Source: Piedraia hortae CBS 480.64 (lineage: Eukaryota). From it: a DNA stretch of 64,000 bases. The translations under genes were made by a program, and so were the position numbers. Under the pieces are notes generated by a model. It did no database searches and was not told where the DNA came from. It saw only the letters and a program-made list of their open reading frames with translations. This document shows, in pieces, positions 1 through 6,627 of this stretch (its first letter is position 1; the number at the start of each line of letters is the position of its first letter). The DNA is taken from positions 1-64,000 of the forward strand of contig MU006019.1 in the NCBI GenBank assembly GCA_010093745.1. Direction: 5' to 3'.

Positions 1-1000
1 AGAGATTTGTATGCAGGTACACATCTGCTCACAATTATAATAACCCGTTCCGATGAACTCTATTCGATGGGAAAGAAATACCGCACCGTATGTCGCCAGC
101 TTTATTATTGTACAACATAAAGTAGCTTCAGGTGACGTTTCGAAATCCACACACACATCAAAGTGTGTTTATTTTTGGTTACAATCGTGGGATCTGACGC
201 CACATGGATAGCCCTGACGTTAACGATTTTTTTCAGCTACGCAGTTGAGATACATCCCAAGTAGCAAATCACATTACAAGTCATTCATGCGCAGATGAAT
301 CTGCTCATTTTTGGAATAAGATTTTAATAGATGAATCTTTGAGACTTTGCAAGGTGAACGTTGCTAAGGCCGCAGAGCTGGCAAGGACTCTTGAACTGAA
401 GATTTCGAAGTTGATCGCTACGCCCTCAAAAGGTGTCATACAGTTCAGACACTCAACCAATCGATCGCTAAGAACTCAATAATCGAAGCTAGGGCTGAGA
501 AAGTTGTTTTAACCCTTCCCTTCGGCAACGAAACTATGAGGTCAGTCTCCAACAAGCTCGTCGACAGACCTTAAACATTCATCACAGTTGCGATTGGATC
601 AAAGTAATCTGACACTCTCACTGAGGTAGGTCTGATGTGTGCCATTAAACTTCGCGATCTTGCTTGACAACTGGGAACATTTGGCGTACCGACATCACCT
701 TCTGCCTCATTGGTAAATTTCTCCTAATGACACTGAAGTACATTGCAGCTACAACAGCTTCGGGATCAAGAGCCAGGTCCGTTTTATTGATCAGAACAAT
801 TGGCCCGGTGGTTTCTCAGTCCGTACAGACGTAGCGGCTGCCAGGAATCCTTGTGAGAAGATGACAACCCATAGAAATGGCTGTTGCCAATTGCTAAGGA
901 CGACAGAGCCTACACCTCCCATCCTGCCCTACTTTTGAATGTATACCTGCCGTCCCGAAAGACGTGCATGGCACCAAAATAACCACTATCTCCGTCAAAC

Positions 1001-1536
1001 CTACTTAGCCGTTCGAACACCTGTACGGTGACAAATGACCGGTCCGGACGCCGACTCTCTGACGGCGAGATCCTTGGCATTCCCCTCCCCTTTGTTAGTC
1101 ACTTTCCCACAATAAGCGTAAACTGCGTGACACTTACGCAATCCTGGCTGTACGTATAGACGGATGCTTGAGCGAGCCGTCAGCAGGTCGGTTGCAAGAT
1201 CTGTGAATGCGGGAACCTTACTTTTTTCTTGATGCGGAACACACAACGGCGAACCCTCTCCCCCCATTTTTGGCCCAGCTGCGTCAAAGGCATGCCGACA
1301 AAGTCCACGTCCTGAACGCCCTCAAAATCGTGTGGCCCAGTGGTCGATGAAGAGGCAACTGGCAGCTGAACTGGCTCAGGGTGAGCGGGCGGTGGTGGAG
1401 CAGCTCGATCATGATGGATTAGAAGAGGAGCCTCTTCAGGCTCGGGGGGAACGGGGTGTGGTGTGAGGTATACCACCCACAGGGGCAGGCTTACAAGGGC
1501 GATAGGGATTAGAATCAAGGGCCAGAGGAAGTCCAT
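1001..1536 (-). CDS. Hypothetical orphan protein with an N-terminal hydrophobic segment; possibly spliced or degenerate
   Basis: ATG ORF 1536-1180 (MDFLWPLILIPIALVSLPLWVVYL followed by a Pro-rich stretch). A GTAAGG donor near 1221, a GCTGAC branch and a TACAG acceptor near 1148 could join it to the 1001..1267 frame. No family recognised. Confidence 0.3.
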
Positions 1537-2761
1537 GGTAGAAAATTGAAAATGGCTGGGGTGGCAAGGTGGAGGGACGATTTGTTACGTCTTTATTGGG
1601 TCTGACGCACTACAGGTCACAGGGACGCTATGTAGAGGAACCAGGCGGTGCTCTCTCACATGAGGAAGGAAGGAGGAGATTGAAAGGTTTTACATAGGGC
1701 TACTGTAAGAAAATATGTGCGTAGATACCAAAGGGAGACACCTCCCTTGTGGCGAGCGATCATTGTGAGCAGGGTTGGTTTTCTTGTCGATCTCAGTTGC
1801 ATCCATTCTACCCGTAGCCTAGGATGTTCATGATCCGTACACAATTGCATAGAGACCTGGATTCCTCTCGCTCGCCATCGATGAGCCACAAGCAGTTTGG
1901 GAAAATGGGGTAAGTTTGCACCGGTAATTACATAGACCCGGCAAAGAGGCGATCACTAATAGCATGACTGGCTCTATCCAGTTTCCGCATACCTATCACC
2001 AGACAATACCGAATTAATTCGGGTAAGAGGCCAACAATAAAGTGGTAAGTGGCCGGCCCTATGAACTCTACTTCATCGGTTGTCAAACACGGAGAAAAAA
2101 TCTTTTTTCTGAGATAGCTTATACCAAGACTGACTGCACTCCCAACGGGAGAAAAGACTCAACACAAACATATCACGAGCCATATGCTTGTGTTACGTAA
2201 GATACCGGTTCGATTCCACAAACCAATATGGGAAAAGCACTTAAACAAGGAAAGGAGAATCTATACCAATTTTTAAGTATCGCAACATCGTGACATTGTG
2301 GCTTCTGCGTTGGCACAACGCATTATTCTTAAGAATCTTCATCCAGATTTGTGGACAATCAATAAGAGACGCAACGAAGCTGCGTCCCCGGTAGGCATCA
2401 AATTTTCCAATTTACCAACAAAATCTCAGCGAGCCCTCTCTTGGGACCTAGCCCTTCTTCTCAGCTTCGTGTCCGCCGTCATGAATGAGAGCCTTTGAGC
2501 GCGTCCGTGCACAATAGACTGCCTCCGGAAAGTGTTCGATGGAAGAAGAGGAACACAGGCGGACTTCTATACACGCTCGCTTCACTGAGTTCACCAATTC
2601 CATCGATATTTCTACCTAAGCCGAGAGGTGAGAAAATAAATACCACAGACCAGCTATCTTACTCTGAGAGACTGTTAGCGACGATCTGAGCCTTTGATAA
2701 CTACCAAACTTAAAAGGGTGCCTTCGTACATCATGATTGTAAGCATGAGCCATTCATCCCA

Positions 2762-3304
2762 CTACCTATATCTCCATAAACCCAGCGATATCGGGATCCA
2801 ATTCCCTCTACACCTCAAACGTTCCCCACCATGTATAATAGCGAGCAAACATCCATCAGGATGGGCGGTGATCTTTTCCGCCTTGATCTCTTCTTCCACA
2901 GTCCTCTCCTCAGCGAACGCAGAGATCAACGTTGACGTGGCCTTGACAGGCACAAAAATCGTGCAGGGTGAGAAGCAGTCGCCTTGGGTTTTGAGGTTAG
3001 AGAACTGGGCTTTCGTGTGCGCATTTCTGGGCTTGGCGATGGGGTGGTTATAAATAGGTGTTTCTGGCGGGATGGTGATGCCCGCGGCGTGAGGCTCGTT
3101 GTATGCAACGTAGCCGTAGGATCGGTCGCAGATCTCGTTGAAGGGGATGAAGGTTGATTTGGTTTGCCAGAGGCTGGTGCGGTTGGTGGAGGAAAGAGGG
3201 CGGGTAGGCATGTTGGTTGAATATATTTTGATGATACGGGGTGAAGACAGAGATGATAGCGCGTGGTGTTGGAAAAGCAAGAAGAGGAAGTGAATAGTGT
3301 TCAA
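2762..3304 (-). CDS. Hypothetical protein (likely ATG at MPTRPLSS, near 3211)
   Basis: 180-codon ORF with gene-like compositional skew; no recognised domain. Confidence 0.3.
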   Translation of the reverse strand: MNTIHFLFLLFQHHALSSLSSPRIIKIYSTNMPTRPLSSTNRTSLWQTKSTFIPFNEICDRSYGYVAYNEPHAAGITIPPETPIYNHPIAKPRNAHTKAQFSNLKTQGDCFSPCTIFVPVKATSTLISAFAEERTVEEEIKAEKITAHPDGCLLAIIHGGERLRCRGNWIPISLGLWRYR

Positions 3305-3879
3305 AGCAAAAGTGTTTCCAGCCGGGTACAGCTAATTTGGACAGACGCCATGGAATGCCACTGACATTTATAACCACGGACCTCTTTTCACAGATACTGG
3401 GATGTTTTATAATCTGATATCGGCAAGATCTCTTAACAATGATACAAAGGACCGCTGATGAGCTGTCAATTGCCAAAGTTTGAATGCTTAAAGATTGGCT
3501 CCGATGTTGTTGGTTGACTGATTGCTTCGATCCCTTGATGGTGGGGTTTGCCCCCAGGTCGATGTAGACTACAGTTGAATCTACATTTCAACGCAGTTGC
3601 ACCAACAATTTAAGTCCGCTGTGGAAAAAAAAAAAAACTGCTCTGTTGTTTCAGAATCAATGATATCGGGATAGACGACAGCGTTATACAGGCAACCCGA
3701 TATGTCCTTGATGGGTGCCACATTCGCACGTAGAGACACCCGCTGTCAAGCGTATTCTAAGACTGTTTGCAACGGATAGTTGCATTATGGTTCAAGCAAA
3801 CCAAGCTTGTGCCTCCAGCAAACATATCAATTAACTGTTATTATGCTACCATTAAATGCCTCCAAGACGATCGTTGGAT

Positions 3880-4350
3880 CTACTCAGTTATTGCACGTGA
3901 AGGTTCGGATTTTGGCTCTTCTTTCAGTTTTCTCCGCTTGGACTTTTTTAACTGGCGCTTTGCACCAATAGGAAATCTTTTTGCAGCATGGCACAGTCTA
4001 CATTCAATTTTGTATACATTTGCCCAGGGCTTCTGACCATGGGACTGATTTTCCGTCGACATGGCGGCTGTGGCATCCTTGATTAAAACGGCGTTGCAGC
4101 GCTTGCAGATGGAACGCTTTACCTCTGGTTTCAAACGAATGGTGGCCTTTTCAGCAACCTGCTTCATGTGCTTGACAAGATGCAGCGAGAGGCCCCCAGA
4201 GTTGGGGTCCAATTTGGCATCCGGGAGGTTACAGTTGGGGGTATTGGATGTTCGTGCAGCAGGCTGTCCGTGTCCCTGCTCGGTCAGGTAGACGGCAGCT
4301 TTGTGTAAGTAGGCTATGCGAGCTGAAATGTGCTTGCTTTGGTTCTTCAT
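3880..4350 (-). CDS. RPR2: RNase P subunit Rpr2/Rpp21 family
   Basis: HISARIAYLHKAA helix, IRLKPEVKRSICKRC...ECRLC zinc ribbon and KRFPIG motif; ATG at 4350 (MKNQSKH). Confidence 0.88.
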   Translation of the reverse strand: MKNQSKHISARIAYLHKAAVYLTEQGHGQPAARTSNTPNCNLPDAKLDPNSGGLSLHLVKHMKQVAEKATIRLKPEVKRSICKRCNAVLIKDATAAMSTENQSHGQKPWANVYKIECRLCHAAKRFPIGAKRQLKKSKRRKLKEEPKSEPSRAITE

Positions 4351-4704
4351 GAAGGGTAGCTGCAAAGGATCAGGCTGTGTGGATAAGCAATGAGGGCTTG
4401 GCGTCGCACGACATGATAAGCCTCAGGCATAGGATGCAGTGCGGCCTCAGGCTCAACGCGGGGAATTTGATCGAGTATAACGAAGCTCAGACCAGGTGGC
4501 CAAAACCGGTTAGTGCCGTGGCGGAACTCGCGGTTTTTGTGCAAGCCTTGCGACAACATTCTGCCAACGCTTTTGCATTGACAATCGTCCACATCGCTGC
4601 TAGTTTTAAGCGACGCGTGTGCAGCCCAGCGTTCAGCGCGTTCGTGTGACCGACGCGACTTCTTTTCTCACCACCACTAACCCACTTTGCTATACGTATC
4701 CACC

Positions 4705-5010
4705 ATGTCCGGCGAAGAGGATCTCATTGACTACTCGGACGAAGAGATCCAGCCAACGGGCGGCTCGTCTAATGGCGCGGCTACTGATGGCAAAAAGAAA
4801 GGCGACCTGACGGTCAGCGGCGGACCCAATGCCGCGCAGGGCAAGGGAAGTTATGTCGGCATCCACAGCACCAGCTTCCGCGACTTGCTGCTGAAGCCAG
4901 AAATCATGAAGGCCATTACGGACTGCGGCTTCGAACATCCATCAGAGGGTTAGTCATTTCATTCCTCTGCGAGAGCGTCCGTCCAAGGGGAGCTGCGACA
5001 AGCCGGCCAG

Positions 5011-5048
<38 letters not shown>

Positions 5049-6413
5049 GAAGGAGGGTGGTGGAAAGCTGAGAGCGCAGAGCGCAGAGCACAGAGACGTG
5101 CAAAGGAGTCTTGTGTTTTGTAGCGGCCTTGGTGGTGGCCACATGGACGGACGCTCTCATCCCCGACGCTTCTCGATCGACATCTAACAACGAATTAGTG
5201 CAACAACTGTGCATTCCTCAGGCGATTGTCGGCGCCGACGTGCTCTGTCAGGCCAAGTCTGGGCTCGGAAAGACGGCCGTGTTCGTCATCTCAACGCTGC
5301 AGCAGATTGAGCCGGTGCCGGGCGAGGCTTCGGTGTTGGTTATGTGCCATACACGCGAATTGGCCTTTCAGATCAAGAACGAATACAACCGCTTTACCAA
5401 GTACATGCCGGACATCAAGACGGCCGTCTTCTATGGCGGCACTGACATCAAGGAGAACGAGAAGGCGCTGGCCAACAAGGAGGCGCATCCCAACATCATT
5501 GTAGCTACTCCCGGTCGCCTCAACGCCCTTGTGCGTGAGAAGAAACTGCGGTTGGGCTCAGTCAAGTTCTTTGTCCTTGACGAGTGTGACAAGATGTTGG
5601 ATCAGATTGGTATGTACGAGCCTCTGGCTGGGACGTGTAGACTGACTTTGATAGACATGCGCCGTGACGTGCAGGAGATCTTCCGTGCTACGCCGTCCAA
5701 TAAGCAGGTCATGATGTTCTCGGCCACCCTGTCTCAGGCCACGCGGCCCGTGTGCAAGAAGTTCATGCGCACGCCGCTCGAGATTTATGTGGATGACGAG
5801 ACCAAACTCACTCTGCACGGACTTCGTCAATATTACTGCAAGCTTTCAGAGGCAGAGAAGAATCGCAGGCTCAACGATCTCCTGGATGAGCTGACGTACA
5901 ACCAAGTCATCATCTTTGTCAAGTCGACCGTGCGTGCAAATGAGCTGTCGAAGCTCCTGGTCGAGTGCAACTTCCCGTCCACAGCTGTGCATTCTGGTCT
6001 CAGCCAAGAAGAACGGTATGTCTTGAGGCAAGCTGAAACTCCATGACTCTGACAAGCATTACAGCATCAAACGCTACCAGGACTTCAAGGCATTCAAGCA
6101 CAGGATCTGCGTTTCCACTGACGTCTTTGGACGCGGAATCGATATTGAACGCATCAACGTGGCAGTCAACTATGATATGCCTGATGCTCCATCTAACCTC
6201 GCGGCCGACAGCAAAGAAAGCCTGGCCTCTGCCGCCGACACGTACCTCCACCGCGTCGGCCGTGCTGGTCGCTTCGGCACCAAGGGAGTAGCGGTAAGCT
6301 TCATCAGCAGCGAGCGCGATGAGATGGTTCTCAAGGCCATCGAGTCACGGTTTGAGAAGAAAATTGAGGAATACCCAGCGGGTGGCGTTGGAATTGACAT
6401 GAAGGGGGAATAG
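4705..6413 (+). CDS. SUB2: DECD-box RNA helicase Sub2/UAP56 (TREX); exons 4705-4948, 5199-5609, 5655-6015, 6065-6413
   Basis: [15 protein letters not shown]-terminus, [24 protein letters not shown] and [10 protein letters not shown] motifs. Introns 4949-5198 (GTTAGT..CTAAC..TAG), 5610-5654 and 6016-6064 restore the frame. Confidence 0.97.
4971..5158 (+). other. Long stem-loop in SUB2 intron 1: perfect 15-bp inverted repeat enclosing a second stem, (CG)8 and a (GA)n tract
   Basis: GAGAGCGTCCGTCCA (4971-4985) is the exact reverse complement of TGGACGGACGCTCTC (5144-5158). Confidence 0.85.
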
Positions 6414-6627
6414 ACTAGTGTACTACCAATGATGTAGCCGGCTGAGTGCGGTTTTCGCTCTGCGCGAATGTTCCCGTGCAATATTCACTCGTCACGGTTT
6501 CCGTGCCTCACAATTGCAGAGCCTTGGCAAACGCAGATTGTTTAGTGACTTCCTAATTTGGCAACTTGACGTAGCAACCGGGTTCTCCAACAGACATTTC
6601 CTCTGTGCCCGAACCCAGCTGTACAGC

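Follow-up and report, generated by a model that had tools for sequence, protein, structure and literature searches.

The SUB2 locus and its first intron

The 64,000-nucleotide (nt) stretch of Piedraia hortae CBS 480.64 analysed here (contig MU006019.1, positions 1 to 64,000; hereafter the window, in whose coordinates all positions are given) carries on its plus strand a four-exon orthologue of SUB2/UAP56, the helicase which acts in spliceosome assembly and messenger RNA (mRNA) export. Its first intron is 250 nt long and is closed by a perfect 15-base-pair (bp) stem. As judged by comparison of sequences, this stem is the local copy of a helix, named P1, which has been kept in most of the related fungal SUB2 genes examined, and we argue that P1 probably controls the splicing efficiency of the dosage-sensitive SUB2. 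Two runs of assembled contigs were used at the locus, X1, which is labelled RNA by guess only and whose contig depths cannot rank parts of the gene, and X2, a DNA run of the same organism. The features of the gene are the following.

4705..4948, plus strand: SUB2 exon 1, starting with the ATG at 4705 and ending in codon phase 1 after ...FEHPSE; X1 contig 4629-4948
4949..5198, plus strand: SUB2 intron 1, 250 nt; 4948/5199 joint in X1, and identical junction in five intronless relatives resembling complementary DNA (cDNA)
4949..4954, plus strand: 5' splice site GTTAGT with a pyrimidine at +3, non-consensus and conserved by the +3 comparison across intron sets
4951..4953, plus strand: in-frame TAG upon retention of intron 1, read from the sequence; the immediate stop is not conserved
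4971..4985, plus strand: P1 5' arm; conserved core 4977-4985 (GTCCGTCCA), outer extension 4971-4976
5010..5095, plus strand: looped-out interior of (GC)8.5, (GA)11.5 and (AGAGCGC)3.6, lineage-specific; the closest relatives have 363-423 nt of different sequence there
5125..5140, plus strand: small GGCC/GGCC hairpin directly inside the 3' arm, arms 5125-5128/5137-5140; conservation not seen
5144..5158, plus strand: P1 3' arm; conserved core 5144-5152 (TGGACGGAC), outer extension 5153-5158
5184..5188, plus strand: branch-point box CTAAC, 25 nt past P1 and 11 nt ahead of the intron 3' end
5196..5198, plus strand: 3' splice site TAG, from the sequence and the X1 joint
5199..5609, plus strand: SUB2 exon 2 (DEAD domain), from X1 joints and protein and Pfam matches
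5610..5654, plus strand: intron 2, 45 nt, joint in X1 contig
5655..6015, plus strand: exon 3, from the gene model
6016..6064, plus strand: intron 3, 49 nt, joint in X1 contig
6065..6413, plus strand: exon 4, from the gene model

Removal of intron 1 restores the reading frame ...FEHPSE/VQQ.... The translated exon 2 is closest to Sub2 of yeast (3e-58) and to human DDX39B (7e-56), the next DEAD-box proteins reaching 1e-21, and the exons match the DEAD and Helicase_C families of Pfam.

The original prediction, made from the letters of the window, had described a 250-nt intron closed by a perfect stem, and both parts of this description hold. An X1 contig joins 4948 to 5199, skipping 250 nt with GT..AG ends and a side of 29, and 4971-4985 is the exact reverse complement of 5144-5158 over 15 bp, the pairing extending to 4971-4990/5139-5158 (20 nt, 90% paired). 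Among 1000 dinucleotide shuffles of the intron, none contained a perfect inverted repeat above 12 bp (loops of 20 nt or more being considered), as compared to the 15 bp observed, and the two arms are the sole occurrences of the stem 15-mer without mismatch in the 64 kilobases (kb) of the window; with two mismatches one extra site appears (2497-2511; expected number of sites 0.16). The repeats reported for the loop were located at 5010-5026 for (GC)8.5, 5026-5048 for (GA)11.5 and 5071-5095 for (AGAGCGC)3.6, the GGCC hairpin is present, and 62 nt remain once the stem is looped out, as had been computed. The wider claim of a large folded RNA element was not borne out, as the folding energy of the whole intron is ordinary (-87.0 kcal/mol versus -87.6 +/- 4.6 in shuffles, z=+0.13), 107 of 200 shuffles folding as well or better. 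A second stem proposed at 4992-5002/5110-5124 can indeed be drawn as 5+5 bp with an internal loop, but it is absent from the minimum-energy fold and showed no conservation. No family of Rfam 15 matched the window intron at E up to 10.

Relatives were obtained as metagenome contigs by a search with the exon-2 protein, in which 592 stretches matched the pattern, 517 of them encoded a relative, and the best 80 (L001-L080; 76-93% identity) were kept. Exon 1 was included in 68 of these loci and missing from the other 12. Five intronless loci (L008, L009, L020, L040, L080) join HPSE to V at the predicted junction, while the remaining 63 of 63 carry an intron at the identical phase-1 codon position, 424-706 nt long and comprising 51 unique sequences. 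All 63 are genomic DNA, since intron 2 is also retained in each; accordingly, retention of intron 1 only, which we sought in these metagenome and metatranscriptome contigs, was not found. Intron 2 of the relatives measures 47-70 nt, and intron 3 measures 47-65 nt or is absent. The oversized first intron, which the original prediction had noticed in the window, is therefore a property of SUB2 throughout the sample, an outlier in every relative.

The 250 nt of the window are the shortest intron 1 in the sample. By exon-2 DNA phylogeny the sister of the window is L001, with an intron of 559 nt, in a group whose introns measure 499-619 nt, and because the window stands among such long-intron relatives its length is a secondary shortening, which removed about 35 nt ahead of the 5' arm, about 25 nt past the 3' arm and most of the interior, where the microsatellites remain. 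Contigs of other organisms in runs X2 and X6 were also observed to match SUB2 exons at lower identity (window 4815-5563), and their spans of 638 letters against 381 in the window, and 950 against 747, fit a longer intron there too.

Conservation and compensatory change in P1

P1 was anchored in the relatives by sequence only, with at most two mismatches to each 9-mer core; four anchors (L001, L002, L006 and L003) were hand-adjusted by flank similarity. The best long-range stem in most orthologues is built of the same sequence words as the stem of the window, and both core arms are present in 44 of the 51 unique orthologous introns and in the window, with GTCCGTCCA about 50 nt past the donor and TGGACGGAC about 50 nt ahead of the branch point. 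Each core position is paired in 38-40 of 40 distinct arm haplotypes. The uninterrupted P1 of these 45 sequences measures 11-21 bp, with 14 bp and -25.7 kcal/mol as the median length and free energy, and with bulges it reaches 20-51 bp in several lineages. Over 946 sequence pairs the 18 bases of the core arms are 93% identical, as compared to 36% for the four-fold sites of exon 2, which are saturated. Another intron, that of L029, has a shortened core within a 32-bp helix.

Where the arms do change, they change together. Core position 1 is A-U in L032, replacing G-C; core position 2 passes from U-A through U.G in the L031 group to C-G in L033; and core position 5 is G-C replaced by A-U in L002 and L006. 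L073, which failed the anchor rule, shows two adjacent double changes within a 29-bp helix. The pair at outer position -1 occurs as CG in 20, GC in 7, UA in 2 and AU in 2 cases, and the flanks differ between lineages and yet remain complementary, as in GAGAGC/GCTCTC of the window, CAGAAC/GTTCTG of L011, TCTTTGC/GCAAAGA of L017, TTCCGC/GCGGAA of L064 and TCCCA/TGGGA of L032. For a covariation alignment of 17 pairs, the 7 unanchored introns were set aside and the 45 anchored sequences were reduced to 35 by removal of 10 near-duplicates. Paired cells amounted to 74.6%; shuffled alignments gave 69.9% (none of 500 reached the observed value) and slid registers 28-40%, and the covariation score was 0.197 against 0.132 shuffled (0/500). 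In ungapped columns the inner flanks paired at 70% versus 59% with shuffled partners and the outer flanks at 55% versus 41% (0/2000 for both). Duplex energies of the inner flank point the same way (-10.2 with the own partner, -8.7 with those of other sequences, -7.2 shuffled), though the rank of the own partner is scattered over 1-41 of 45 and this test is weak alone, because many lineages share an identical flank. RNAalifold, applied per clade, recovered P1 four times, with 11 bp in clades A+B, 13 bp in C+D (131/141 cells paired), 23 bp in E (196/207) and 12 bp in F (74/77). These changes, at an orthologous position, bear out the earlier proposal of a cis-element, the stem being a real and selected element of the RNA.

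The terminal repeat of a dispersed miniature inverted-repeat transposable element (MITE) had been named beforehand as the refuting alternative, and we looked for dispersal of the arms in the window, in about 287 kb of related loci and in the contigs of run X2. Inside intron 1 of the loci the core 9-mer was counted 80 times; the remaining ~287 kb contain 8 more, of which 7 fall in truncated copies of intron 1, so that a single site lies truly elsewhere, and in the window only the two arms carry it. Among the 12 loci without exon 1, an arm was found in the truncated intron of 6, while in 4 less than 70 nt lies upstream of exon 2. No extra X2 contig was found on the arms. Since in the DNA so covered the core 9-mer is nearly confined to intron 1, a dispersed element and chance are both ruled out.

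Several further pairings were observed around P1. A further nested long-range helix, P2, was recognised in two clades, its pairing reaching 94.4% over 14 introns (L010, L011, L014, L015, L017, L021, L024, L028, L057, L060, L061, L065, L068 and L078; alignment A3, columns 146-174/327-345), with 13 double-change cells as compared to 4.5 in shuffles. Several clades also share a short hairpin whose loop is conserved; in C and D this loop is TTTCGAC-like, the hairpin lies near P2, and double changes are seen in 6 of its 7 pairs. P1, P2 and the hairpin together look like a multi-helix intronic RNA without an Rfam family, no gathering-score match being found in 20 orthologous loci. Since the window is without P2 and the hairpin, these are not needed for the role of P1 there. 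In L026 (1897-2498) and L037 (1866-2498), which belong to a clade without the P1 core, very long near-perfect long-range stems (51 bp and 22 bp) take its place, at roughly 128 nt from the donor and 122 nt from the 3' end.

In the window itself the 5' arm (4970-4990) has an alternative partner, an imperfect second copy of its complement at 5161-5176, just past the 3' arm and 8 nt ahead of the branch-point box. This duplex would reach -20.6 kcal/mol as compared to -30.5 for P1, and the duplication was not seen in relatives. The core of the 5' arm opens with a donor-like GTCCGT (4977-4982, the same in orthologues) which has a +3 pyrimidine like the real donor; lying where it does, it would be masked by P1. 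No alternative joint is listed in X1, in which, as in assembled contigs generally, rare variants are lost.

A TTGGACGAAC-like stretch resembling the 3' arm stands 5-10 nt ahead of the branch-point box in many loci (L001, L003, L017 and L073 among them). Its pairing with a CCCCAA-like stretch past the donor, considered as a helix P0, was not supported by duplex energies (own partner -7.7, other sequences' -7.2, shuffles -6.4 +/- 3.0 kcal/mol). A pairing of donor GUYAG with branch-point box CURAC, suggested by RNAalifold in clade F, was rejected, since +3 and R do not covary and C stands opposite A in 19 of 52 sequences. Neither of these two pairings gives a conserved structure alternative to P1. 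The pairing of an ACTAAC stretch in the 5' untranslated region (4676-4686) with the exon 1/intron junction is not conserved and is a matter of chance (-11.75 versus -12.38 kcal/mol shuffled, 51 sequences).

Elsewhere in the gene, about 15 extra residues were noticed in exon 4 (~6186-6233), between helicase motifs and directly ahead of HRVGRAGR. They are shared by the window and its closest relatives L001-L005 and L008, and most other orthologues lack them, their exon 4 match being 246 nt over 97 query residues. The stretch is mRNA and not an intron, because a jointless X1 contig covers 6064-6445.

A weak donor, two RNA forms and the proposed role of P1

The donor of intron 1 departs from consensus in a fixed manner. 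Every one of the 52 unique intron-1 sequences has a pyrimidine at +3 (T in 28, C in 24), as compared to 4 of 61 unique intron-2 and none of 47 unique intron-3 sequences of the same genes, in which taken together this base is A or G in 104 of 108. A pyrimidine at +3 weakens the donor, as it affects pairing with U1 RNA. Its maintenance over such divergence looks like selection for a poor substrate, so that intron 1 would have, like YRA1 and SUS1, a non-consensus signal under selection (PMC3201863). The original prediction had further pointed out that a retained intron reads GGT TAG (4948-4953), and so it does; the immediate stop is a trivial result of the GTTAGT donor, as 24 of the 52 sequences have GTCAGT and read GGT CAG.

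Both forms of the RNA are present in X1. Its contigs contain all three spliced joints, which speak for RNA, while none occurs in X2, and a 309-nt X1 contig runs from 4919 through intron 1 to 5227 with 30 and 29 exon letters on its two sides, just short of the 31 required by our bridging rule. The intron-containing form supposed by the original prediction is thus found in one RNA-like run, a hint that such SUB2 RNA is abundant enough for assembly. Contig depths of 184.8 (intron-bearing), 515.9 (spliced junction) and 1176-1224 (exon) would correspond to a nominal 15-26% retention, a figure drawn from depths that cannot be ranked. X1 is blank at 4361-4621 and 6449-6535 and has no contig inside introns 2 and 3; blanks do not count as evidence, and our view that this run contains little contaminating DNA and little RNA retaining introns 2 or 3 comes from them only.

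The position of P1 follows the splice signals. Median linker lengths in the 45 sequences are 52 nt (donor to P1) and 49 nt (P1 to branch point), while the loop varies over 158-544 nt; P1 is therefore positioned relative to the splice signals and not to the interior. The window has linkers of 22 and 25 nt, 47 nt in all. In yeast, zipper stems such as those of RPS17B and RPL7A are described with a total linker of 42-85 nt (Rangan et al. 2025, PMC12350175). The stem of the window fits the positional rules published there, its 15 perfect bp and the median of 14 bp are long enough for such a stem, and the shortest linkers of the 45 sequences, 22 and 25 nt, satisfy the limit on each single linker (PMC12350175).

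On balance we lean towards reading P1 as a conserved zipper helix that sets the splicing of a deliberately weak, oversized intron. Intron 1 is kept some ten times as long as the introns beside it, and its donor is kept at the non-consensus GUYAGU. P1 pairs a segment about 50 nt past the 5' splice site (22 in the window) with a segment about 50 nt ahead of the branch point (25 in the window) and loops out 158-544 nt; by this reading it would so bring the reactive sites to a fixed short distance and, as a structural splicing enhancer of the zipper type, help a substrate which is poor in itself. The weakness of the substrate would leave splicing incomplete and the unspliced RNA with an early stop, by which retention would lower the output of protein and the intron would act as a throttle on a dosage-sensitive helicase. 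With its 11-21 contiguous bp, P1 would be the part open to action by a helicase or by the state of the splicing machinery, and Sub2 itself may feed back through it.

Several observations weigh against this. A near-invariant core yields little covariation, so that the signal comes mostly from the flanks and a few lineages, and kinship alone can let related sequences beat shuffles without any structure. The core is missing in five unique introns of one clade (L026, L027, L037, L039 and L042), and no arm was found in the truncated introns of L054 and L056, with 200 and 547 nt upstream of exon 2. The support from RNA is one run of contigs, RNA by guess, whose intron-bearing contig falls below the bridging rule, and five cDNA-like contigs of relatives are fully spliced. 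The total linker has a median of 99 nt (range 47-198 nt, 45 sequences), and only 5 of the 45, the window included, lie within 42-85 nt, limits which were modelled on the yeast spliceosome (PMC12350175). The retained-intron fraction fell in variants of the RPL28 zipper stem, and a stem of this kind is therefore not bound to favour splicing (PMC12350175). Finally, the window has lost the ancestral interior and shortened both linkers, and the ancestral arrangement is therefore not strictly required.

The most serious competitor, which deserves weight though we consider it unlikely, is that P1 is a constitutive structural aid which makes an old oversized intron spliceable, with no regulation or feedback, the unspliced RNA being ordinary pre-mRNA. 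It would account well for the conserved geometry and helix and for the fully spliced contigs of the relatives, and it gains from the fact that retention was seen in a single run. It leaves unexplained the +3 pyrimidine in 52 of 52 sequences, the identity of the arms beyond what pairing asks for over saturated synonymous divergence, and the persistence of the long interior, though the window has deleted it.

Going further than the throttle, one may speculate that SUB2 intron 1 of filamentous fungi is an ancient RNA sensor of the activity of Sub2, of the mRNA export complex TREX or of a spliceosome helicase, in which P1, with P2 and the hairpin in most lineages, would form or melt as a switch between spliced and retained forms. 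We regard this as rather unlikely; if true, the sensor would hold the dose of an mRNA-export helicase constant.

It is improbable that P1 primarily closes an independent RNA made from the excised intron, be it a stable intronic RNA, a small-RNA precursor or a protein scaffold, with control of splicing secondary. The nested P2 with its double changes, the C+D hairpin and the extension of P1 by bulged pairing in several lineages would suit such an RNA, but the window has swapped the interior for microsatellites and retains P1, Rfam has no match in the window region or the 20 orthologous loci, and what is conserved is the position of P1 relative to the splice signals and not the loop. More improbable still is an element acting in DNA, with the arms as inverted transcription-factor sites or as an intronic enhancer. 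First introns often contain transcriptional elements, and the primary sequence of both arms is highly conserved; against this, the copies of the arms are always inverted, their distances to the splice signals are fixed, and the compensatory changes of flanks and core with G.U intermediates are meaningful only in RNA. The idea that the inverted repeat arose by chance, or marks the termini of a MITE or some other insertion, could draw on the low-complexity interior and on the ordinary fold of the whole intron, and deserves practically no credence given the shuffles, the confinement of arms and core described above and the orthologous position in 63 loci, which already refutes it.

Known systems and the meaning of the SUB2 intron

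In kind the intron is known, either as a structural splicing enhancer or as a regulated intron of an export factor. What appears to be new is this instance in SUB2, the depth of its conservation and its coupling to an invariant weak donor, for which no report was found in the literature searched. Two surveys of structured RNA in fungi (PMC5640933 and PMC8216456) do not mention SUB2, UAP56, helicase, DEAD or export in their main texts, and none of these terms occurs in three supplements of the former. Literature on introns of SUB2/UAP56/DDX39B yielded only work on human DDX39B and unrelated papers on Plasmodium SUB2.

The yeast zipper stems differ from P1 in three respects. Their sequence conservation is 20-30%, often in few orthologues, as compared to the 93% of the P1 core; their 85-nt linker limit is exceeded by most SUB2 orthologues (PMC12350175); and the other introns of the gene in the host fungus measure about 50 nt, a setting different from that of yeast. 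Closest in logic is intron 1 of RPL7B, in which a zipper stem rescues a weak splice signal, as we propose for SUB2, and in which a conserved intronic structure is linked to control of the gene's own product (Granas et al. 2025, PMC12311795). The zipper stem there is a splicing enhancer which autoregulation disables; the weak signal is the branch point and not donor +3, and a mutually exclusive conserved structure binds Rpl7, whereas we found no conserved alternative in SUB2 (PMC12311795). YRA1 and SUS1 are likewise genes of the TREX/TREX-2 pathway with non-canonical signals, in which retained-intron RNA sets the protein level; they are different genes with different signals, and the feedback by Yra1 is experimental (PMC3201863).

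Another parallel comes from plants, where a hairpin in DRH1/RH46 pre-mRNA, the DEAD element, is a negative helicase sensor, tested as a sensor of its own helicase's activity through splicing (Burgardt et al. 2026, bioRxiv 10.64898/2026.01.23.701338). P1 is likewise a conserved helix in the pre-mRNA of a DEAD-box helicase, and its 11-21 contiguous bp are close to the 10-15 bp or so which DEAD-box enzymes unwind efficiently (bioRxiv 10.64898/2026.01.23.701338). The plant element belongs to a DDX5-like helicase of another kingdom, while SUB2 is a fungal DDX39/UAP56, and it is a local 20-bp hairpin masking an alternative 3' splice site, while P1 spans the intron and no alternative joint was seen in X1 (bioRxiv 10.64898/2026.01.23.701338). 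Homology of the two was not found, as the architecture differs and neither intron 1 nor the 20 loci matched Rfam, in which the presence of the plant element was unchecked. Within the family itself, splicing of intron 6 in the human DDX39A and DDX39B transcripts is promoted by the protein that each encodes, so that it depends on the protein level (Banerjee et al. 2024, PMC11317157). Intron 6 is a different intron, having a C-rich polypyrimidine tract and no helix, and its dependence is positive, depletion giving more retention, opposite to the feedback proposed in the original prediction (PMC11317157). As regards direction the precedents point both ways, the plant element being negative, DDX39A/B positive and RPL7B coupled to a zipper.

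Should the intron be a sensor, it would be a fungal counterpart of the plant DEAD element in which a zipper helix replaces the masked site. P1 would also be a rare zipper-type intron helix having phylogenetic support, the yeast examples being poorly conserved, and the shortened intron of the window is a natural deletion variant that narrows which parts matter. The SUB2 gene of S. cerevisiae is not known to have such an intron. Factors of this pathway, namely Yra1, Sus1, Chtop and DDX39A/B, are kept at set levels through their own introns, and the near letter-for-letter helix together with the invariably weakened donor point to a similar control of SUB2 in filamentous fungi.

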